DNA of 7,738 nt from a virus (taxonomy: Duplodnaviria > Heunggongvirae > Uroviricota > Caudoviricetes). Under the pieces are notes generated by a model. It was not told the DNA's origin, ran no database searches, and saw only the letters and a program-made list of their open reading frames with translations. The position numbers were made by a program, and so were the translations under genes. The DNA is taken from IMG/VR virus record IMGVR_UViG_2802429219_000018; one strand, written 5' to 3'. Of this stretch, positions 478-7,738 are shown in pieces; the first letter of the stretch is position 1; each line of letters starts with the position of its first letter.

Positions 478-2616
478 CTATTCATCCAGTTCATCATCCA
501 TAAGTAATGCATACGCTCTTAACTGCTTACCGTTCAGATGCTTTATTCTGGGTGTTCTTGTTTGCCACCCTTTACCACTTGAAGGGCGTTTAAGCATATT
601 TGCCCCATGAAGCACACTTGCAGCATGGTTTGCATCAAATCCACTTGCCACCTCGGCTTTAAAAACAGCCGGAAGAACATAAAAAGTTATAGCATCATCA
701 AGGTTTGATTTTCCTTTATTTTTATAACCAGCAAGGTTATGAATACTCATCTGGCTCAATTCATCAAAATCAACAGGTACAAAACGACTAATGCTATTTG
801 CTGTAAGAAATGATGTTGCCTGCTCAATAATCTGCTCGTTTTCCTTATTGCCTGTCCCGAACTCAGCCACCCATACATTAAAAACATGCTGTAACGCATC
901 TCGACACGCTAATGAGTCCCATCCAGTAATATGTTCAGAAAGCAGCATTGCACATTCCATAACTGCAAAACGATCCTTTACTCTATGAACTTGCTCGCCG
1001 TAATGTTGCGGAATAAGAGAATCCCATCGCTCTAACGCTCGTTTATAAGCCTCCTTCGCTTCCTGTTGATGATCTGCAAGCCATCTGATCCACTCACGAC
1101 CCGCCGCGCCATAATTTTCTTTCCATGCTGCTTCCAGTGCCTTCGCATGTTTCTCTCCATTTTCGTATCCATGAAATTCAGTTGGTCGAGATACAGGGAT
1201 ATTCAGTAATCTAACGAGCTGTCCAGCTTTTACTTTGATTCCTGCTCCAGCGAGAAAAGTTTCAATACTTTTCTCTCCTGTACTGATAACAACCGTTTCG
1301 AAATATTTAATTTCACGGTTCCCACCATCAGGACTTCCCTGTAATTTCCCTTTTCCATTAAAAAGAGTATAAGACGACGTAAATACACTTCTGGCACTGG
1401 AAGCCTGCTCTATTTCATCAAGAGCCAATAAACAGTGATTATGTGATTCTGCTTCGTTAGTTATACCCAACGCCGTTCCATACCAGGAAAGCCGTTGTTG
1501 TTTTGGAATTCCATACAGACTTGAGGCAAAATCTTCCGCAGTTGTTTTTCCCGCTGTACTTTGCGCATACAGATGCACACCAAAGCCATCAGCACCAATA
1601 ACACCAATCAGCGGGGCTGCCAGTGACGTAGCAGCCGCCAGCATCTGAAACGGGTTTTTATATGCCAATTTTGCAACATTCTCGCGCCAGCTTTCAGTAG
1701 TTCCTTTTACGCGATAAGCCAGCCTTGAGGCACTTCCTCCGGTAAACATAACTGGGGTTTCAGGCTCACCAATAACATCACCATTTGGCATGATGTAGAT
1801 GCCACCAAACCACCCGGAACGTTGTGTAGCCGTATACTGTAACCCTTTCTGAGCTTCATTCTGTATCCAGTCAGATAGAAGCTCTCTGGCCTTATTTTGT
1901 GTAGTAATTTTTAATCCCCAGTCTTTAAGGCGTGACCATCCCTGAGGGGTTCCAATCATTCCGGCTCTAATACAATGAGTAACCATTTCCCCCCTGAATT
2001 TCCAGCGTAAAGCAATAAACATTGCGTCATTTTCTCTATCAAATCCTTCGCCTAACACTTCCAGAGGTGAGCACATCCATTGACCATGGCGGGTTATCTC
2101 TCCTGAACGTTCAATTTTTGGGGTAACCCAGTACATACCTACTGGATCCGCATTTATACGCAATTCAACGTAAGGCGCCAGTTCATCGCGTGCCTGATTA
2201 CTTGCAGATTGCACAATATCCGTCATCGACACTTCTCCGCTCTCTACCTGTTCACGGATCCGTTGCAAGTAGTCGCGCCAGTTCTCCGGCTCCCGGTCGG
2301 TGATGCCTTTGTATAATTTCGCATCCTGTACGCCAGCCAGCGCCAGCTTTTCAGCAATAGCGTTGATCTGAATTGGCTCCATTTCCCCCGCGATATAAAC
2401 ACGCGCAAAGCGGCGCTCATCGTCAATAATGCGGATATTCGCCAGGTCTGCCAGTTGCTTTGGCCCCAGGTAAACAGGTGGTACGTTATCGCCGTGTTTT
2501 CGTCCTTCGCTTTCAATCCAGTGTTGAGCATGGGAGTAAGCGTCCGTCCCGGCAAAAATGATTACCTCGGTGAATTTATCCTTCGGCTGATATTTTAAAT
2601 TCGGTGCGTTTTTCAC
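478..2616 (-). CDS. Satellite replication initiator: primase/helicase-type protein with a DUF927-like core and a P-loop NTPase domain (712 aa)
   Basis: Long ORF with a GTG start preceded by GGAGG 6 nt upstream, and a 4-nt GTGA overlap with the upstream ORF's stop. The central segment GMYWVTPK...WMCSPLEVLGEGFDREN...FIALRWKF resembles the DUF927 core. Walker A-like AQSTAGKTT and Walker B-like CLLALDEIEQ are present. Cognate iterons follow the stop codon (TAG at 478-480). The family call is from memory, not from an HMM search. Confidence 0.9.
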   Translation of the reverse strand: MKNAPNLKYQPKDKFTEVIIFAGTDAYSHAQHWIESEGRKHGDNVPPVYLGPKQLADLANIRIIDDERRFARVYIAGEMEPIQINAIAEKLALAGVQDAKLYKGITDREPENWRDYLQRIREQVESGEVSMTDIVQSASNQARDELAPYVELRINADPVGMYWVTPKIERSGEITRHGQWMCSPLEVLGEGFDRENDAMFIALRWKFRGEMVTHCIRAGMIGTPQGWSRLKDWGLKITTQNKARELLSDWIQNEAQKGLQYTATQRSGWFGGIYIMPNGDVIGEPETPVMFTGGSASRLAYRVKGTTESWRENVAKLAYKNPFQMLAAATSLAAPLIGVIGADGFGVHLYAQSTAGKTTAEDFASSLYGIPKQQRLSWYGTALGITNEAESHNHCLLALDEIEQASSARSVFTSSYTLFNGKGKLQGSPDGGNREIKYFETVVISTGEKSIETFLAGAGIKVKAGQLVRLLNIPVSRPTEFHGYENGEKHAKALEAAWKENYGAAGREWIRWLADHQQEAKEAYKRALERWDSLIPQHYGEQVHRVKDRFAVMECAMLLSEHITGWDSLACRDALQHVFNVWVAEFGTGNKENEQIIEQATSFLTANSISRFVPVDFDELSQMSIHNLAGYKNKGKSNLDDAITFYVLPAVFKAEVASGFDANHAASVLHGANMLKRPSSGKGWQTRTPRIKHLNGKQLRAYALLMDDELDE

Positions 2617-2903
2617 TTCTTACCTCCCGCAACCAACATTGCCCGGATTTTTTTAATATTCGTGGCTGCACGTCTCGCCACCGCCTGTTGTTTGTTTTCC
2701 ACCAGAATAAAATCACGCTCAAACTGACGGCGCGGCATTACGCAGTCATATTCGTAAGCCTCACGGCGGTAGGTGATATTGCCTGGCGTAACGTGACGAA
2801 TAACCACTCGTCCCCCACGTCTGGTGTCGCGGTAAATATCTCCGTGTCTGATTTCAGGCCGAGAGAGACCGCTGGCAGTAAAGCCAGAATTTTTCTTTTT
2901 CAT
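2613..2903 (-). CDS. Small basic protein, 96 aa, function unknown (GDIYRD...VTPGNITYRREAYEYDCVMPRRQFERDF resembles DUF4222-type small phage proteins; unverified)
   Basis: ATG at 2903, 4 nt after the upstream ORF's stop. AGGA lies about 11 nt upstream. Its stop overlaps the primase GTG (GTGA). It sits in the same coupled operon. Confidence 0.65.
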   Translation of the reverse strand: MKKKNSGFTASGLSRPEIRHGDIYRDTRRGGRVVIRHVTPGNITYRREAYEYDCVMPRRQFERDFILVENKQQAVARRAATNIKKIRAMLVAGGKK

Positions 2904-2907
2904 GGTT

Positions 2908-3108
2908 TTATTTTCCTGTCAGCAGTTCCGGTTTTATTCCTGCACTAATACAGAGTTCAGAAAAGCCTTCTGCCGTACTTACAATTTCATTATTTCGCAG
3001 CCGGCATTGTGATTTCACTTTCCCTTTATCCAGGTAAACCAGTATGCGTCCGGTGAAATCCTCTGGCACATTCAGGGTAATTGTCATTGTTGCTGGCTTA
3101 TTACCCAT
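2908..3108 (-). CDS. Hypothetical 66-aa protein carrying one copy of an 'FTG' repeat domain
   Basis: The ATG overlaps the upstream stop as ATGGGTAA (3101-3108). A G8 run (complement of C8 at 3115-3122) sits 6 nt upstream and is SD-like. The domain FTGRILVYLDKGKVKSQCRLRNNEIVSTAEGFSELCISAG is paralogous to two segments of the upstream 122-aa ORF. An alternative start at M8 cannot be excluded. Confidence 0.6.
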   Translation of the reverse strand: MGNKPATMTITLNVPEDFTGRILVYLDKGKVKSQCRLRNNEIVSTAEGFSELCISAGIKPELLTGK

Positions 3109-3469
3109 GGTTCACCCCCCCCTGAATGACCTGATAACCGCAACTGGTCAGCAATTCGATAAATTCCGGCAGTGTGCCGAAACAGCAATCATCACGCAGC
3201 CGTTCGCGGGATACCTCGACGCCGTTTTCGTAGTGACTCACCATGCGTCCGGTAAAATGCAGATCATCATCGTGATGGCACGTTAACGGCTTAATCAGTC
3301 GCGCACGTTCCGCCAGTTCCAGCAATGCTTCAACGCTTCCGGCAATTGCACCATCCGGCAGGTGGTAATTACGCACTATGCGCCCGTTCTCCACATTGAC
3401 CAGCAACTGCCCGGTAAATTTCTCGTCAAACTGAATGCTGTTAAGGTCAGAAATTGACAGGTTATGCAT
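3101..3469 (-). CDS. Hypothetical 122-aa protein with two tandem copies of the 'FTG' repeat domain
   Basis: ATG at 3469 with GGAGG 6 nt upstream. It overlaps the upstream stop as ATGCATAA (3462-3469). The internal repeat is FTGQLLVNVENGRIV...GSVEALLELAERA (from aa 18) versus FTGRMVSHYENGVEV...GTLPEFIELLTSCG (from aa 72). Confidence 0.7.
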   Translation of the reverse strand: MHNLSISDLNSIQFDEKFTGQLLVNVENGRIVRNYHLPDGAIAGSVEALLELAERARLIKPLTCHHDDDLHFTGRMVSHYENGVEVSRERLRDDCCFGTLPEFIELLTSCGYQVIQGGVNHG

Positions 3470-3665
3470 GGTGCACCTCCTGGCGAATACGGGCAGCGAA
3501 TACCATCACGCAGCCATCAGGAGATTGCTGACGCGCTTCCTGTTCGCTGATGGCCTCGATGTGAATTACGCGCGGTTGTGCCGTACTCAGGGCGATAAAA
3601 CGCCAGATATATTTATTCAGGTTGTGCGAGTCCCGCCCTTGCGGGTGTGTGGTATGATTTCTCAT
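3462..3665 (-). CDS. Icd-like / Ash-like small protein, 67 aa (uses an internal start of the 331-aa track ORF)
   Basis: ATG at 3665 is preceded by GAGGT (3674..3670). The sequence MRNHTTHPQGRDSHNLNKYIWRFIALSTAQPRVIHIEAISEQEARQQSPDGCVMVFAARIRQEVHHA fits the pattern I recall for phage Icd-like proteins (aromatic-x-W/F-x-F-x-A ... A-x-SE-x-EAR ... F-A-A-R). It is the first gene of the coupled operon. The family call is from memory. Confidence 0.65.
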   Translation of the reverse strand: MRNHTTHPQGRDSHNLNKYIWRFIALSTAQPRVIHIEAISEQEARQQSPDGCVMVFAARIRQEVHHA

Positions 3666-3745
3666 AGCTACCTCGATACTGTTGCTATCGTTGGTGGTTA
3701 GAAGCCCGGTTAGTGTTAGCGCACTGCCGGGTTTCGTCGTTTTTA
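3665..3745 (+). ncRNA. Candidate ~80-nt cis-antisense RNA covering the SD/start of the Icd-like gene
   Basis: There is a plus-strand extended -10 (TG-g-TATGAT, 3650-3658) inside the Icd-like coding region, which predicts a start near 3665. The RNA has a 5' hairpin (cgata-ctgttgc-tatcg, 3674-3690) and then a plus-oriented terminator hairpin (3701-3735) with a U-rich tail to 3745. No plus-strand gene feeds this terminator. The start site and expression are untested. Confidence 0.35.
3701..3745 (+). terminator. Plus-strand-oriented intrinsic terminator-like hairpin in the leader region of the replication operon
   Basis: The stem pairs gaagcccggttagtg with cactgccgggtttc (14 pairs, one bulged U, 6-nt loop ttagcg), followed by gtcgttttta. 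Two of the pairs are G-U on the plus RNA (3704/3732 and 3711/3726) and would be C-A mismatches on the minus RNA. The U-rich tail exists only in the plus orientation. Confidence 0.45.
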
Positions 3746-3754
3746 TGAATCGAT

Positions 3755-3860
3755 CATTGTGAGATACATAGTCATCACAATGTGAGATATACATTATATT
3801 GTGGTGATATACATTGCAAGTGTTTTTATATCTCACTTTTGTGTATAGTGATATACACAT
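3755..3860. promoter_or_regulatory. Operator array and divergent promoter region between the RHH gene (+) and the Icd-like/primase operon (-)
   Basis: Five copies of GTGA(G)ATA(TA)CA: 3759-3770, 3782-3795, 3804-3815, an inverted copy at 3827-3836, and 3848-3860. They are phased at about 22 bp. An 8-bp inverted repeat CATTGTGA/TCACAATG lies at 3755-3762 and 3775-3782. A perfect minus-strand TATAAT (3798..3793) has a palindromic TTGCAA (3814-3819) 15 bp upstream. A plus-strand TATAGT lies at 3844-3849. The promoter assignments are tentative. Confidence 0.65.
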
Positions 3861-3879
3861 AACTAATTGGTGATTAACT

Positions 3880-4182
3880 ATGTCTGTATACAAAAATGCA
3901 AAATCGCAAATGACAACGATCAGGGTTCCCCACGATGTTATGGAGGGTATGGAATCCGTAAAACTGGACGGCGAAAGCAACGCCGGATTCATAGTAACCG
4001 CCATGCGTGGTGAGATCGCCCGCCGCCAGGCAGAAGGAAGAGGAGAAAATCCCCTGGTTTCTTCGCTCGATGCACTGGCGCAGGTGGAAAAAATCGGAGT
4101 CAAAGCAGCCGAGGAGATCGGGCAGCTCGTCACCGTCGCGCGTGAAGAACTCCAGCGCCGCAAGGCCAAAGAACAGGAGTAG
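3880..4182 (+). CDS. Ribbon-helix-helix-like small DNA-binding protein (YlcI/YnfO-like), 100 aa; candidate island repressor
   Basis: The N-terminal segment TTIRVPHDVMEGMESVKLDGESNAGFIVTAMRGEIARR has a strand-helix-helix pattern like the YlcI segment IRFPNQMIEQINIALEQKGSGNFSAWVIEACRRRL (from memory). The C-terminal half is charged and helical. It is the only plus-strand gene and sits next to the operator array. The antisense ORFs over it (3874-4200 and 3462-4457) are Ser/Cys-rich shadow-type sequence. Confidence 0.7.
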   Translation: MSVYKNAKSQMTTIRVPHDVMEGMESVKLDGESNAGFIVTAMRGEIARRQAEGRGENPLVSSLDALAQVEKIGVKAAEEIGQLVTVAREELQRRKAKEQE

Positions 4183-4457
4183 TTGATCAGCACCGGGCAA
4201 CCAGAAAAAATCGTATCAGTCGCGCTACCAGCAAAATTTTTTGCTTTCCGGACAGCGTGGCCAACGGCATTTTGCAGCAAAATATTCTGCATTTCTGGCG
4301 TGCTGTAGTAACGGTGATCAGCGCCTTCACATTGAACGAACTTGTCGCTAAAATTCACCCATATAGCAAACATCGCGGTGCTACAGGTAATTCGTTCACA
4401 AAGGCGCTCCGGCAACGGGGCGCTTTCTCTTTTTGTAACGGTCAGAGCGTTACACAT
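4183..4457 (-). other. 5' segment of the long minus-strand ORF: a translationally coupled start with no local stop codon
   Basis: The ATG at 4457 overlaps the ant-like stop as ATGTGTAA, with GGAGG 9 nt upstream. The first ~90 codons (MCNALTVTKRESAPLPERLCERITCSTAMFAIWVNFSDKFVQCEGADHRYYSTPEMQNILLQNAVGHAVRKAKNF...) look protein-like and have no competing gene. The frame stays open to 3462, so the 3' end is undefined. Confidence 0.3.
4401..4434 (+). terminator. Rho-independent terminator, plus-strand orientation, about 220 nt downstream of the RHH gene's stop
   Basis: aaggcgctccg-GCAA-cggggcgcttt forms an 11-bp stem (two G-U pairs on the plus RNA) with a GNRA tetraloop, followed by ctctttttg. 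The minus-strand equivalent has C-A mismatches and only a UUUGUG tail. Confidence 0.6.
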
Positions 4458-5250
4458 GGCTGTTTTCCTCCATGCGACGGGCTAACCAACGCTGCGAAAG
4501 ACGAATTAATTCAGCTTTCCGCTGGTGGTAGTCCTGGCCTAACTCAATCAGCGTGATATTGCTCTGCTCAAGGTAAGAAAGGTGCTCAAGCTGCAATGTG
4601 CTCATGTGGTCGCGTGGTTCGCCTGTGATGTCGTTCGCCTGCGCCCACTGTTTTGCAGTCATGCCACCCAGCACGATACGCGCCAGCATGTTCGCTTCCG
4701 TGGTGTAGTGGTGCTGGAGTGTGTTTTTACCCAGTTCAGCCCGGTACGCCTCCAGCGCGGCACACATTGGCTTAAAGTAGCTGGCAACTGTGATACGGGC
4801 TTTCAGTTCCCGGCGTAACGCTGCGGAACGCACTGGCGCTACCTTGTGTAGCTCCTCCTCGCATTTGATGAAGTACTGACGAACGGCGCGGCCCTGTTCG
4901 GTGCGTTCGACCATCGCCAGTTCTTTCGCCATGTTGATAGTGCTCAGGTAGTCGTGCTCTATACGTTGGCGAGATTTTGCGCTCACCGGATTGGGGGAGG
5001 TCAAATTTTCTACGAATTCAAAATCCACGCCCTTTTTAAATCCGTACTCATCAATGCGTCCTTTAATCCAGGTTGTGAAATCACGGCCTACCCCGAGCGC
5101 CTTATGCAACGCTCTGGCGCTAACAATATTGGTTTCACGCCCGCCAATAACGCCGGAAATAACCGGGATAATTTCGCCAAAATTTTGCAGATTCTGGTTT
5201 TCAGGCCGAACGAAGCCCTGCCCCTGTACGGGCGTTTTTGGAAATTTCAT
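4450..5250 (-). CDS. AntA/AntB-family phage antirepressor homolog, 266 aa
   Basis: ATG at 5250 with AGGAG 5 nt upstream. The N-terminal half (VSARALHKALGVGRDFTTWIKGRIDEYGFKKGVDF...INMAKELAMVERTEQGRAVRQYFIKCEEEL) matches the AntA domain pattern. The C-terminal half is helical and of uncertain family. Confidence 0.85.
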   Translation of the reverse strand: MKFPKTPVQGQGFVRPENQNLQNFGEIIPVISGVIGGRETNIVSARALHKALGVGRDFTTWIKGRIDEYGFKKGVDFEFVENLTSPNPVSAKSRQRIEHDYLSTINMAKELAMVERTEQGRAVRQYFIKCEEELHKVAPVRSAALRRELKARITVASYFKPMCAALEAYRAELGKNTLQHHYTTEANMLARIVLGGMTAKQWAQANDITGEPRDHMSTLQLEHLSYLEQSNITLIELGQDYHQRKAELIRLSQRWLARRMEENSHV

Positions 5251-5327: not shown

Positions 5328-5525
5328 TCAGGTAGCTGTTCCGCGTGATTCCGCAATACGCTGATTAATCCACTCGTCAATTTCACTCTCAACGAAAGCA
5401 ATCGCTCGCGAGCCAATTTTTACAGGTTTAGGAAAACGCCCTTGGGCAATGAGTTTATAGATCCATGCCCTGCCATAGCCTGTACGGCGCATGGTTTCTG
5501 GCATACGAATTAAAGATTGTGACAT
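5328..5525 (-). CDS. alpA: AlpA-family (excisionase-like HTH) transcriptional regulator, 65 aa
   Basis: MSQSLIRMPETMRRTGYGRAWIYKLIAQGRFPKPVKIGSRAIAFVESEIDEWI is the classic AlpA/Phage_AlpA signature. I chose the internal ATG at 5525 (GGGAGA about 8 nt upstream) over the track start at 5594, because that start lies inside the palindromic operator. Confidence 0.85.
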   Translation of the reverse strand: MSQSLIRMPETMRRTGYGRAWIYKLIAQGRFPKPVKIGSRAIAFVESEIDEWINQRIAESRGTAT

Positions 5526-5590
5526 GATAATCGTCTCCCGTTGTTTATTGATGCCTACGGGAGACATTGAAGCAGGTAAGACATTGGATA

Positions 5591-5629
5591 TCACCGCAAT
5601 TGCGGTGAATGATACCGCAATTGCGGTAT
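5591..5629. promoter_or_regulatory. Twin 18-bp perfect palindromes (core ACCGCAATTGCGGT) upstream of alpA; putative dimer-binding operators
   Basis: TCACCGCAATTGCGGTGA (5591-5608) and ATACCGCAATTGCGGTAT (5612-5629) are each perfectly self-complementary. Their centres are exactly 21 bp apart. They lie between the 251-aa gene's stop (5640) and the alpA start (5525). Confidence 0.7.
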
Positions 5630-5639
5630 AGGACTACAA

Positions 5640-6395
5640 CTACGATTTAATTGATTTATTGGCTTCAGCAAACTTTGCTTCCAGCGTTCTTGAACTCATC
5701 CCCGGCTTACCTTCAAAATGTCCCAATAAATTACTAATAATAGAGCTTTGATTTTCGAATACAGATTGCTTAATACCAGCAGGTGAACGCCCTAACATTA
5801 GAAAAAGCAACCCTCCAATAATGTTTAAATATGTTGTTTCAGAACGTTGGTCAATGTTTTGCACGGAGTTATCAACCATTCGTCGTAGTGAATCACGTTC
5901 CCCTTGTAATTCGGAAATTTCATTTTTCTGCTGTTGGAAAGTCTTCATAGCATTATCTAAGCGAATATTAAGACGTTTGTTTTCAGCCTGAAGAGTTTGA
6001 TATGCCTCGACTGTAATTCCAGCATGTAACTGCTGCTCAACAGCATCAAAAAGGAAAGCTGGTTTTTGGTTGGGATAGTTTTTTGACATCCATGATTTCA
6101 GATCGGAATGGCGGACGGTTAAACGGTGCTTAGCAACCTGTTCTCCAGGTTGAACAGTTTTACCATCACGGCCATAAGGAATTTCACAATTATGGATTGC
6201 ATCTAAAATTTTCTCAGCATTAACACGCAAGCAAGGCCATTGAGGGAACATTCCAACGCTAGGTAAAACTCCATCTCCCACTCGCTCCAATATTAAAACT
6301 TCATGAGCAATTAAATTACACCAACGTAGCGCCGCTTCAATTGGAGTGTAATATGCCTTTTCAAGAGAACTACAGCTTTTTGAATTGTAAGTCAC
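5640..6395 (-). CDS. Orphan 251-aa protein (N-terminal domain + coiled coil + short hydrophobic helix + C-terminal tail), function unknown
   Basis: GTG start at 6395 with GAGGT 8 nt upstream. The next Met is aa 49, so the start is uncertain. No competing ORF covers it. A heptad-rich segment spans aa ~128-175 (EAYQTLQAENKRLNIRLDNAMKTFQQQKNEISELQGERDSLRRMV). A hydrophobic helix spans aa 189-202 (YLNIIGGLLFLMLG). It is markedly AT-rich compared with its flanks. Confidence 0.75.
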   Translation of the reverse strand: MTYNSKSCSSLEKAYYTPIEAALRWCNLIAHEVLILERVGDGVLPSVGMFPQWPCLRVNAEKILDAIHNCEIPYGRDGKTVQPGEQVAKHRLTVRHSDLKSWMSKNYPNQKPAFLFDAVEQQLHAGITVEAYQTLQAENKRLNIRLDNAMKTFQQQKNEISELQGERDSLRRMVDNSVQNIDQRSETTYLNIIGGLLFLMLGRSPAGIKQSVFENQSSIISNLLGHFEGKPGMSSRTLEAKFAEANKSIKS

Positions 6396-6523: not shown

Positions 6524-7738
6524 TCACCCGCATTTTCCGAACTCACCATGCACCACATTTCCGCCATGCTCGAGCGAATCCATATAATCGGCGTACCACT
6601 GAAGCATTTCCCGCCGTCCATCCAGATATTGCGCATGGTTGTATGTGCCACGAATTGAGTTTTTATCGACGTGTGCGAGCTGCGTCTCTATCCATGCGGT
6701 GTTATAGCCCTGCTCATGCAAAATGGTGCTCATGGTGTGCCGGAATCCATGACCAGTAACCTTTCCGTTATAGCCGATGCGTTTAAATACTTGGTTTATG
6801 CTAGCCTCGCTCATTGTTTTCCTTGGATCATTACGGCCGGGAAACATAAGCGGATAATTGCCAGTTAATTCTTTAATCTGCCCAATAAGAGAAAGAGCCT
6901 GCTTAGACAAAGGCACCACATGAGGGCGACGCATTTTCATCCGTGAAGCAGGTATCTCCCAGATAGCCTTGTTGAGATCGATTTCATCCCATAATGCACC
7001 GCGCAGTTCGCCAGTTCGCAAACCAGTGATAATCAGTAGACGAGCCGCCATAACAACCAATGCACTTCCTGAGTAACTGGACAATGCCTTGAAAAAATCA
7101 GGCAATTCTTTGGCTGTGAGGAAAGGATAATGATTAGATTCATGGCCTTGCATCGCGCTAGTAAGATCTGGGGCAGGGTTATACTCTGCGCGACCAGTGA
7201 CTATTGCATAGCGGAAAACTTCCCCACACCGCTGCCTCACTTTTTTGGCTTTTTCTGTAGCACCGCGCCCCTCGATGCGTCGCAGCACATTCAGAAGTTC
7301 AAGTGGTTTGATTTCGGCGATTGGTTTTTTGCCAATGTAAGGGAACACATCTTTGTTGAAGGCTTCGAGGATGTCTGAAGCATAACCAGCAGACCATTTT
7401 TTTAATTTGCTGCTGTGCCACTCAAGGGCAATATCTTTGAAGGTGTTGTTTAACTGCGTTTCCCGGGCAATCTTTTCCTCTCGTTTCGCTTCCATCGGAT
7501 CGATACCCCCAGCGATACCCCTTTTAGCTTCTTCACGTTTTGCACGAGCATCAGCCAAGGTAACTTCAGGATACACACCTAGTGCTAACAGCTTCTCTTT
7601 ACCAGCTACACGATACTTGAAGCGCCAATATTTTCCTCCACTAGGTTTTACCAAGAGATACAGACCACCACCATCAGCCAGCTTGTAAGCCTTCTCTTTT
7701 GGCTTGGCAGTGTCTATTTGACGGGCATTGAGTTTCAC
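6524..7738 (-). CDS. int: P4-type (DUF4102 N-terminal arm) tyrosine integrase, 404 aa as read; 5' end coincides with the window edge
   Basis: The N-terminus ARQIDTAKPKEKAYKLADGGGLYLLVKPSGGKYWRFKYR is typical of the P4/CP4 integrase family. Catalytic motifs are TGLRTGELR, GHGFRHT and RGTYNHAQY, and GEVFRYAIVTGRAEYNPAPDL is shared with IntS-like integrases. The first codon in the window is GTG. The true start may be here or a few codons beyond the window. Confidence 0.9.
   Translation of the reverse strand: MKLNARQIDTAKPKEKAYKLADGGGLYLLVKPSGGKYWRFKYRVAGKEKLLALGVYPEVTLADARAKREEAKRGIAGGIDPMEAKREEKIARETQLNNTFKDIALEWHSSKLKKWSAGYASDILEAFNKDVFPYIGKKPIAEIKPLELLNVLRRIEGRGATEKAKKVRQRCGEVFRYAIVTGRAEYNPAPDLTSAMQGHESNHYPFLTAKELPDFFKALSSYSGSALVVMAARLLIITGLRTGELRGALWDEIDLNKAIWEIPASRMKMRRPHVVPLSKQALSLIGQIKELTGNYPLMFPGRNDPRKTMSEASINQVFKRIGYNGKVTGHGFRHTMSTILHEQGYNTAWIETQLAHVDKNSIRGTYNHAQYLDGRREMLQWYADYMDSLEHGGNVVHGEFGKCG

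Follow-up and report, generated by a model that had tools for sequence, protein, structure and literature searches.

A five-site repeat array over two back-to-back promoters as the probable operator of a YlcI/YnfO-family protein in a Gram-negative PICI

In a 7,738-nucleotide stretch of viral DNA (IMG/VR record IMGVR_UViG_2802429219_000018; hereafter the window), a repeat array at 3755-3860 overlaps two back-to-back promoters. The sequence comparisons described below make it probable that these repeats are the operators of the adjacent YlcI/YnfO-family ribbon-helix-helix (RHH) protein, which would repress both promoters. An initial annotation made from the letters of the window had interpreted the region in a similar way, as the immunity switch of an island, and our follow-up, which is computational throughout, partly supports that interpretation.

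The layout of the window is that of a Gram-negative PICI, with the integrase, AlpA and DUF927 primase genes by which Gram-negative PICIs and cf-PICIs are recognized. Such satellites are islands of 10-20 kb at a tRNA or other att site, have no full set of phage genes, and depend on a helper phage for induction and packaging. On the minus strand it carries a tyrosine integrase (6524-7738), an ORF without assignment (5640-6395), AlpA (5328-5594) and an AntA-type antirepressor (4450-5250), the last of which is missing from many related islands. Between the integrase gene and the next ORF lies the int-alpA RNA motif RF02996 (6412-6480, minus strand; 49.8 bits compared to a gathering score of 35.8). 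The operon that would be controlled by the array occupies 478..3665 on the minus strand and has overlapping stops and starts. It begins with an icd-like gene (3665..3462), which is followed by two phrog_340 ORFs (3469..3101 and 3108..2908), a DUF4222 gene (2903..2613) and the gene for a DUF927 primase/helicase of 712 aa (2616..478). The closest complete E. coli island (L033, strain SCU-104) is located at tRNA-Thr beside proA and contains PerC and ProQ genes; EcCIMP1 is a published island with PerC and ProQ genes (PMC11773190). Another island with the same regulatory module (L002) has a capsid/protease gene and is therefore a cf-PICI.

A motif scan of both strands found five copies of GTGAKATA in the whole window, all within 3759-3857, compared to a chance expectation of 0.34 from shuffled sequences (five copies were reached in 0 of 200 shuffles). 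Plus-strand copies start at 3759, 3782, 3804 and 3848 and a minus-strand copy lies at 3829-3836, which confirms the five-copy motif of the initial annotation, including its inverted member. The shortened motif TGAKATA returned the identical five sites, and a repeat search gave a direct family with spacings of 23, 22 and 44 and an inverted copy at 3827-3839; allowing for orientation, neighbouring sites are 22-23 bp apart. Site 1 (3759..3768, plus strand; GTGAGATACA) falls in the leader of the minus-strand promoter, at about +18 to +27. Site 2 (3782..3793, plus strand; GTGAGATATACA) abuts the -10 element of that promoter and covers its predicted start point, and site 3 (3804..3813, plus strand; GTGATATACA) falls between its -35 and -10 elements. 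Site 4 (3827..3836, minus strand), the inverted copy, reads GTGAGATATA on the minus strand and sits in the spacer of the plus-strand promoter, while site 5 (3848..3857, plus strand; again GTGATATACA) overlaps the end of the plus-strand -10 element and the predicted start point. The positions of sites 2 to 5, at about -98, -75, -52 and -30 from the ATG of the RHH gene, are conserved in all related loci. Site 1 is an extra site of the window's specificity type, present in all loci of the same type and absent from this position in other types. The five sites had initially been treated as one set, a description that is accurate family-wide for four positions and type-specific for the fifth, at 3759. 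When four diverged loci that belong to the window's type are compared, invariant columns make up 73% of the sites compared to 22% of the spacers.

Two further details of the initial annotation hold in part. All sites had been placed on one face of the helix, which is true of neighbouring sites, or of wrapped DNA, whereas strict phasing fails at 10.5 bp per turn, where site 5 is 171 degrees off site 1; it takes a pitch of about 11.1 bp per turn to bring all direct sites to within 26 degrees. An inverted repeat (CATTGTGA/TCACAATG) embedded in the array is present in the sequence but not conserved among same-type relatives, and since its right arm falls in their most variable spacer, it is probably incidental. 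Exactly 22 bp 3' of site 5, at 3870-3878 (plus strand), the sequence GTGATTAAC coincides in part with the Shine-Dalgarno region in front of the RHH gene. This sequence is kept as GTGATT[TC]AC in same-type loci and resembles a weak sixth site; it may be a ribosome-binding site and nothing more.

Both promoters were found by a position-anchored scan across related loci. A generic promoter scan of the window detected neither of them, in the case of the minus-strand promoter owing to its 15-nt spacer, whose shortness in the window counts against the operator reading. This promoter of the icd-like/replication operon (3793..3819, minus strand) consists of a -35 element TTGCAA (3819..3814) and a -10 element TATAAT (3798..3793). 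It occupies a fixed place across loci, with the form TTGACx-17/18-TAxxxT in most of them and TTGCAA-15-TATAAT in the window. The promoter of the RHH gene (3821..3849, plus strand) has a -10 element TATAGT (3844-3849) and a weak, T-rich -35 region; a -10 element (TATAnT) with a weak -35 is likewise found across loci, and a GTGTATAnT block is conserved in the alignment. The positions of both -10-like hexamers are conserved across relatives and across genera. Each promoter carries two sites, one within the spacer and one over the start point, with the fifth site of the window's type about 20 nt into the minus-strand leader. That the array covers TATAAT and TATAGT, as first annotated, can be read directly from the sequence. 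The accompanying proposal, control of divergent RHH and replication promoters, fits an array that overlaps both, with the correction that the operon starts with the icd-like gene.

The proposed repressor is a 100-aa protein encoded at 3880..4182 on the plus strand, in which an RHH domain at the N-terminus and a long helix at the C-terminus (residues 58-99) are predicted. It matches the YlcI/YnfO family model NF041551 (NCBIfam) over residues 8-49 with 71.2 bits, compared to a cut-off of 30, and phrog_6522 at 1.2e-59. Full-text literature on YlcI, YnfO and DUF3950 mentions the family in gene lists only and gives no function for it. A single-sequence AF2 model of the protein was poor (pLDDT 60.9) and was replaced by an alignment-based model (55 sequences; mean pLDDT 88.9), which shows an extended N-terminus, helices at residues 18-27 and 34-53, and the long helix at 58-99. 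In this monomer prediction, the first elements form a strand-helix-helix fold of about 45 residues, as in the RHH (MetJ/Arc/CopG) superfamily. Proteins of this superfamily bind repeated sites as dimers, whose two-stranded antiparallel sheet enters the major groove and whose strand residues determine the specificity for DNA. We assign the RHH fold with moderate confidence, in agreement with the RHH-like character that the initial annotation had given to this protein. Foldseek of the model against the PDB gave no match, profile searches of PDB sequences gave no RHH match, including the solved Arc and Mnt structures, and Pfam showed no family above threshold, with a weak sub-threshold match to PSK_trans_fac (RHH clan) in 16 of 22 members. 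The long C-terminal helix could be the source of the higher-order oligomerization that had been suggested for this protein.

In the protein alignment, the body is conserved and the N-terminal 20 residues are hypervariable. Aligned with the strand of Arc, residues 11, 13 and 15 would come to lie at base-contacting positions; of these, residue 15 is invariantly Arg. Among 5426 complete E. coli genomes, 654 contain the long form of the gene, 47 of these with the operator type of the window, and some genomes carry 2-3 copies. A tblastn search of the protein against 50,697 phage records gave no match, which indicates that the long form is not a phage gene. The short member of the family in K-12, YlcI (DLP12), adjoins the cos/nohD region of a prophage and not a replication operon; about 125 nt upstream of it (upstream region L034 5447-5610), CATCTAC occurs twice at a distance of 22 bp. 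The context of K-12 ylcI is a different one, and this gene was uninformative as a comparison for the window locus. A 331-aa ORF on the minus strand (3462-4457) runs antisense to the RHH gene and covers the entire regulatory region; nothing supports this ORF, and we treat it as spurious.

The evidence that links this protein to the array comes from 193 related loci, collected from complete E. coli genomes, GTDB genomes, assemblies, IMG/VR and metagenomes (a scan of genome contigs contributed 9 loci, and scans of IMG/VR and metagenomes 160 more). In 191 related loci with 74 unique upstream regions, the layout recurs with four sites, two per promoter. In the loci inspected directly, from Escherichia, Yersinia, Enterobacter, Xenorhabdus, Photorhabdus, Serratia, Erwinia and Phytobacter, the common order is an icd-like gene (minus strand), a structured region with a plus-strand T-run, the four sites and a YlcI-like gene (plus strand). 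Site orientation differs among specificity types; RHH repressors such as omega tolerate varied site orientation.

When we tabulated the type of the predicted strand (residues 8-16) against the upstream motif for 191 loci with 74 unique upstream regions, the table was diagonal, with a one-to-one correspondence. The strand KSQMTTIRV, the type of the window, goes with TGAKATA (4.93 copies per upstream region), a motif with zero copies in all other strand types except two single-locus variants, KSQMTT[VI]RI. KSQLTTVRV goes with GTRTTTC (4.6 copies per upstream region), KSQSLTARI with TGTAAK (4.78), KSKQISIRI with GTGATT (4.1), KSQQ[LI]NARF with GRKATTC (3-5) and [KR]SQ[MLV]KN[IV]R[FI] with GGTGTR (2-4.6). 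For two distant homologues, the strand type was used to forecast the motif ahead of any look at the DNA, and both forecasts were correct: P0129 (SQMTTIRI), with 55% identity to the window protein, shows five (G)TGAGATA-like sites whose orientations follow the same order, and P0133 (SQSLTVRV; 40% identical) has TGTAAG/CTTACA sites. Similarly, two distant relatives (L012, 43% identical to the query, and L022) have both Q11/N13 and GRKATTC in common. The motif tracks no other island protein among those compared (AlpA, primase, Icd-like and DUF4222). The type of the window is kept across Escherichia, Yersinia and Enterobacter, and E. coli alone has at least six motif types.

The covarying strand is encoded directly beside the operators, so that linkage contributes to the association and the correlation is partly confounded. 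The joint retention of strand and operators in homologues of 40-55% identity with diverged spacers nevertheless points to selection and not to linkage alone. Strands of the KSQM and KSQL types differ conservatively and yet go with very different motifs, which suggests that the N-terminal tail may also contribute to recognition. We also observed that the regulatory region (compared in L001-L033; window 3400-4300) is mosaic, with recombination joints at the terminator hairpin of a candidate antisense RNA and around codon 17-20 in the RHH gene. The position of these joints implies that operators and strand travel as one cassette among islands that differ in integrase, AlpA and replication module.

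This covariation also bears on what else might bind the repeats. If the array were a replication origin, its repeats would be iterons recognized by the primase/helicase or another protein of the replication operon, a reading in keeping with the location of the array directly upstream of that operon and with its 22-bp spacing, since 22-bp periodicity beside replication genes is typical of iteron origins. Iterons are expected to be specific to their cognate initiator and to covary with it, but repeats and replication proteins are discordant here. Three islands (L002, L020 and L026) have three different motifs despite primases that are 98-100% identical, DUF4222 proteins that are 91-97% identical and orf106 proteins that are 93-97% identical, and the motifs of L016 and L022 differ although their DUF927 primases are 97% identical. 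Conversely, the window and L013 have the same motif, whereas their primases align over 153 residues only, at 42% identity, and three unrelated families of replication initiators, AAA_25, DUF927 and D5_N, are found with one and the same motif type. The sites moreover coincide with promoter core elements. An iteron origin is thus largely refuted, and we regard it as very improbable. Near-identical proteins at loci with different motifs likewise rule out AlpA and the Icd-like protein as binders. AlpA had to be considered as the known activator of Gram-negative PICIs (PMC6092414), and Icd-like proteins are labelled as repressors in phrog_6196 and phrog_1743 (PHROG label 'transcriptional repressor'). 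AlpA is, however, 92-97% identical between loci with different motifs (L001 compared to L014 and L019; L016 compared to L022, 97%), and the Icd-like proteins of the window (GAGATA) and L001 (TGTAAG) are 97% identical. Other trans-acting factors of this kind would be a host protein or an island-inducing protein of a helper phage. The persistence of the window's type across three genera speaks against a different trans-acting factor, and the six or more motif types within E. coli make a single host factor unlikely; a binder encoded by the helper phage is conceivable. Taken as a whole, recognition by a trans-acting factor other than the YlcI-like protein therefore appears improbable, if somewhat less so than an iteron origin.

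A different possibility is that the YlcI-like protein does bind the array but acts as something other than a simple repressor of the replication operon, either activating one of the promoters, as Mnt does at Pmnt, or mainly guarding the transcription of a toxin-like icd module instead of serving as the master switch of the island. The plus-strand promoter has a poor -35 element and could need help, and the icd-like gene additionally has a candidate SymR-like antisense RNA, in the style of a type I toxin-antitoxin system. Against this, both promoters have one site in the spacer and one on the start point, which is a geometry of repression and not of activation, and translation of the entire replication operon is coupled to that of the icd-like gene ahead of it. 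We consider such a role unlikely, although it is the least improbable of the alternatives.

From the preferred reading, repression of both promoters by the YlcI/YnfO-family protein, we infer the following mechanism. The protein would be an Arc/Mnt-like RHH repressor whose dimers each read a site of about 10 bp through the N-terminal beta-strand, with residues 11, 13 and 15 most likely reading the bases. The long C-terminal helix would link dimers sitting 22-23 bp apart, and binding could thus be cooperative. With the array occupied, transcription from the strong promoter of the icd-like/primase operon would be repressed, as would that from the repressor's own weak promoter (auto-repression), so that the replication module and the icd-like gene would stay silent. 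Release might come from AlpA-driven read-through out of the alpA-antA operon, antisense through the repressor gene; alternatively or additionally, the AntA-type antirepressor might inactivate the repressor. Between antA and the array, the minus strand has one weak terminator-like site only (4055..4041), and the terminator at 4401-4436 belongs to the plus strand and lacks a T-run when read on the minus strand. This near-absence of minus-strand terminators would make it possible for AlpA-activated transcription to read through the repressor gene into the operon.

A structured RNA antisense to the start of the icd-like gene is likely to act as a second layer of control. The candidate cis-antisense RNA (about 80 nt; 3650..3745, plus strand) has an extended -10 element, TGgTATGAT (3650-3658), which is conserved in relatives, as well as two hairpins and a T-run ending at about 3745. 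Its predicted extent, 3666-3745, lies opposite the ribosome-binding site and start codon of the icd-like gene. A match to SymR (RF01809) is full-length yet remains below the gathering score (32.9 bits compared to 61; E = 0.0028), so that the candidate falls short of the threshold of this antitoxin RNA family; its structure is nonetheless backed by covariation. RNAalifold across 23 loci gave 23 pairs, of which 10 show compensatory changes. Numerous pairs are G-U and would become C-A mismatches on the other strand, which identifies the plus strand as the structured RNA. The copy in the window folds at -37.2 kcal/mol (z = -5.9). An Rfam scan of the window showed no C4 or isrK immunity RNA, which are reported for some Gram-negative PICIs (PMC10111431). 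The icd-like gene is probably toxic, and the antisense RNA over its ribosome-binding site would serve as a post-transcriptional lock on leaky translation.

RHH repressors on repeated operators over divergent promoters are already well known (P22 immI, omega, CopG), and the P22 immI system of Mnt and Arc offers one of the closest sets of parallels. Common to both would be the RHH fold, a repressor gene divergent from the operon that is repressed, operators that overlap back-to-back promoters and an antirepressor gene nearby. Mnt has a C-terminal helical tetramerization domain where the protein of the window has a long C-terminal helix, and the R-[VIW]-P end of the strand is, by our comparison, common to Arc and the 100-aa protein. 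In contrast, no sequence match to the solved Arc or Mnt structures is detectable, immI has one operator with two half-sites about 11 bp apart instead of four or five sites 22-23 bp apart, its target is ant and not icd-like and primase genes, and it belongs to a phage and not to a satellite. Other systems for comparison are the omega repressor (pSM19035, inc18 plasmids) and RHH repressors of the ParG/CopG type. The heptads of omega are contiguous, with a 7-bp period, whereas the sites described here are two helical turns apart, a distance that would require a bridging domain. NikR differs by its metal-sensing ACT-like tetramerization domain and single palindromic operator and has no sequence relationship to the protein.

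The initial annotation had further likened the array to the Stl/Str region of Gram-positive PICIs; both this analogy and the term immunity switch are inference. As in Stl/Str (Rpr), the proposed repressor gene is divergent from a satellite replication module and operator specificity would be swapped modularly between islands. Unlike here, Stl repressors are helix-turn-helix proteins, and their gene is co-oriented with int, whereas the YlcI-like gene is convergent with int-alpA. Stl/Rpr master repressors silence the replication operon of their island until a helper-phage protein inactivates them; what matches them here is the geometry only, a divergent gene with operators over a promoter. The candidate antisense RNA over the start of an operon-heading icd-family gene recalls P1 immI (c4 RNA - icd - ant) and the type I pair SymR/SymE, with the difference that c4 of P1 is a processed same-strand RNA (c4/CI), whereas the RNA in the window is cis-encoded on the opposite strand.

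What appears new, judging from sequence comparison, is the YlcI/YnfO assignment, a natural set of strand-operator cassettes and a candidate repressor for Gram-negative PICIs. In the full-text literature searched, we found no paper describing a YlcI/YnfO repressor, its operators or such cassettes. The locus offers a concrete and widespread candidate repressor with defined operators and a predicted specificity code, and a first, predicted functional assignment for the uncharacterized YlcI/YnfO (DUF3950) family. The matched protein-operator pairs could serve studies of RHH recognition or be used as orthogonal repressors. More tentatively, YlcI/YnfO RHH proteins might be the missing master repressors of a large class of enterobacterial PICIs and cf-PICIs, split by their exchangeable strand-and-operator cassettes into six or more hetero-specific groups. 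In this view a SymR-like cis-antisense RNA would gate a toxic icd-like gene, and AlpA read-through or AntA would flip the switch upon helper induction. This broader proposal is possible but doubtful as a whole. If it is true, the master-repressor reading would revise the AlpA-only model of induction, AlpA activation being the sole control described for Gram-negative PICIs (PMC6092414).

Downstream of the array, the window lacks about 400 bp that are found 3' of the stop codon of the YlcI-like gene in three related islands (L033, L001 and L003); a small annotated ORF of 59-66 aa is part of the missing segment. The 270 nt that remain (4183-4452, plus strand) do not code for protein and show high conservation. 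A promoter-like site at 4326-4354 (10 of 12 matches) and the strong plus-strand terminator at 4401-4436 fall within them, and this region could make another small RNA.
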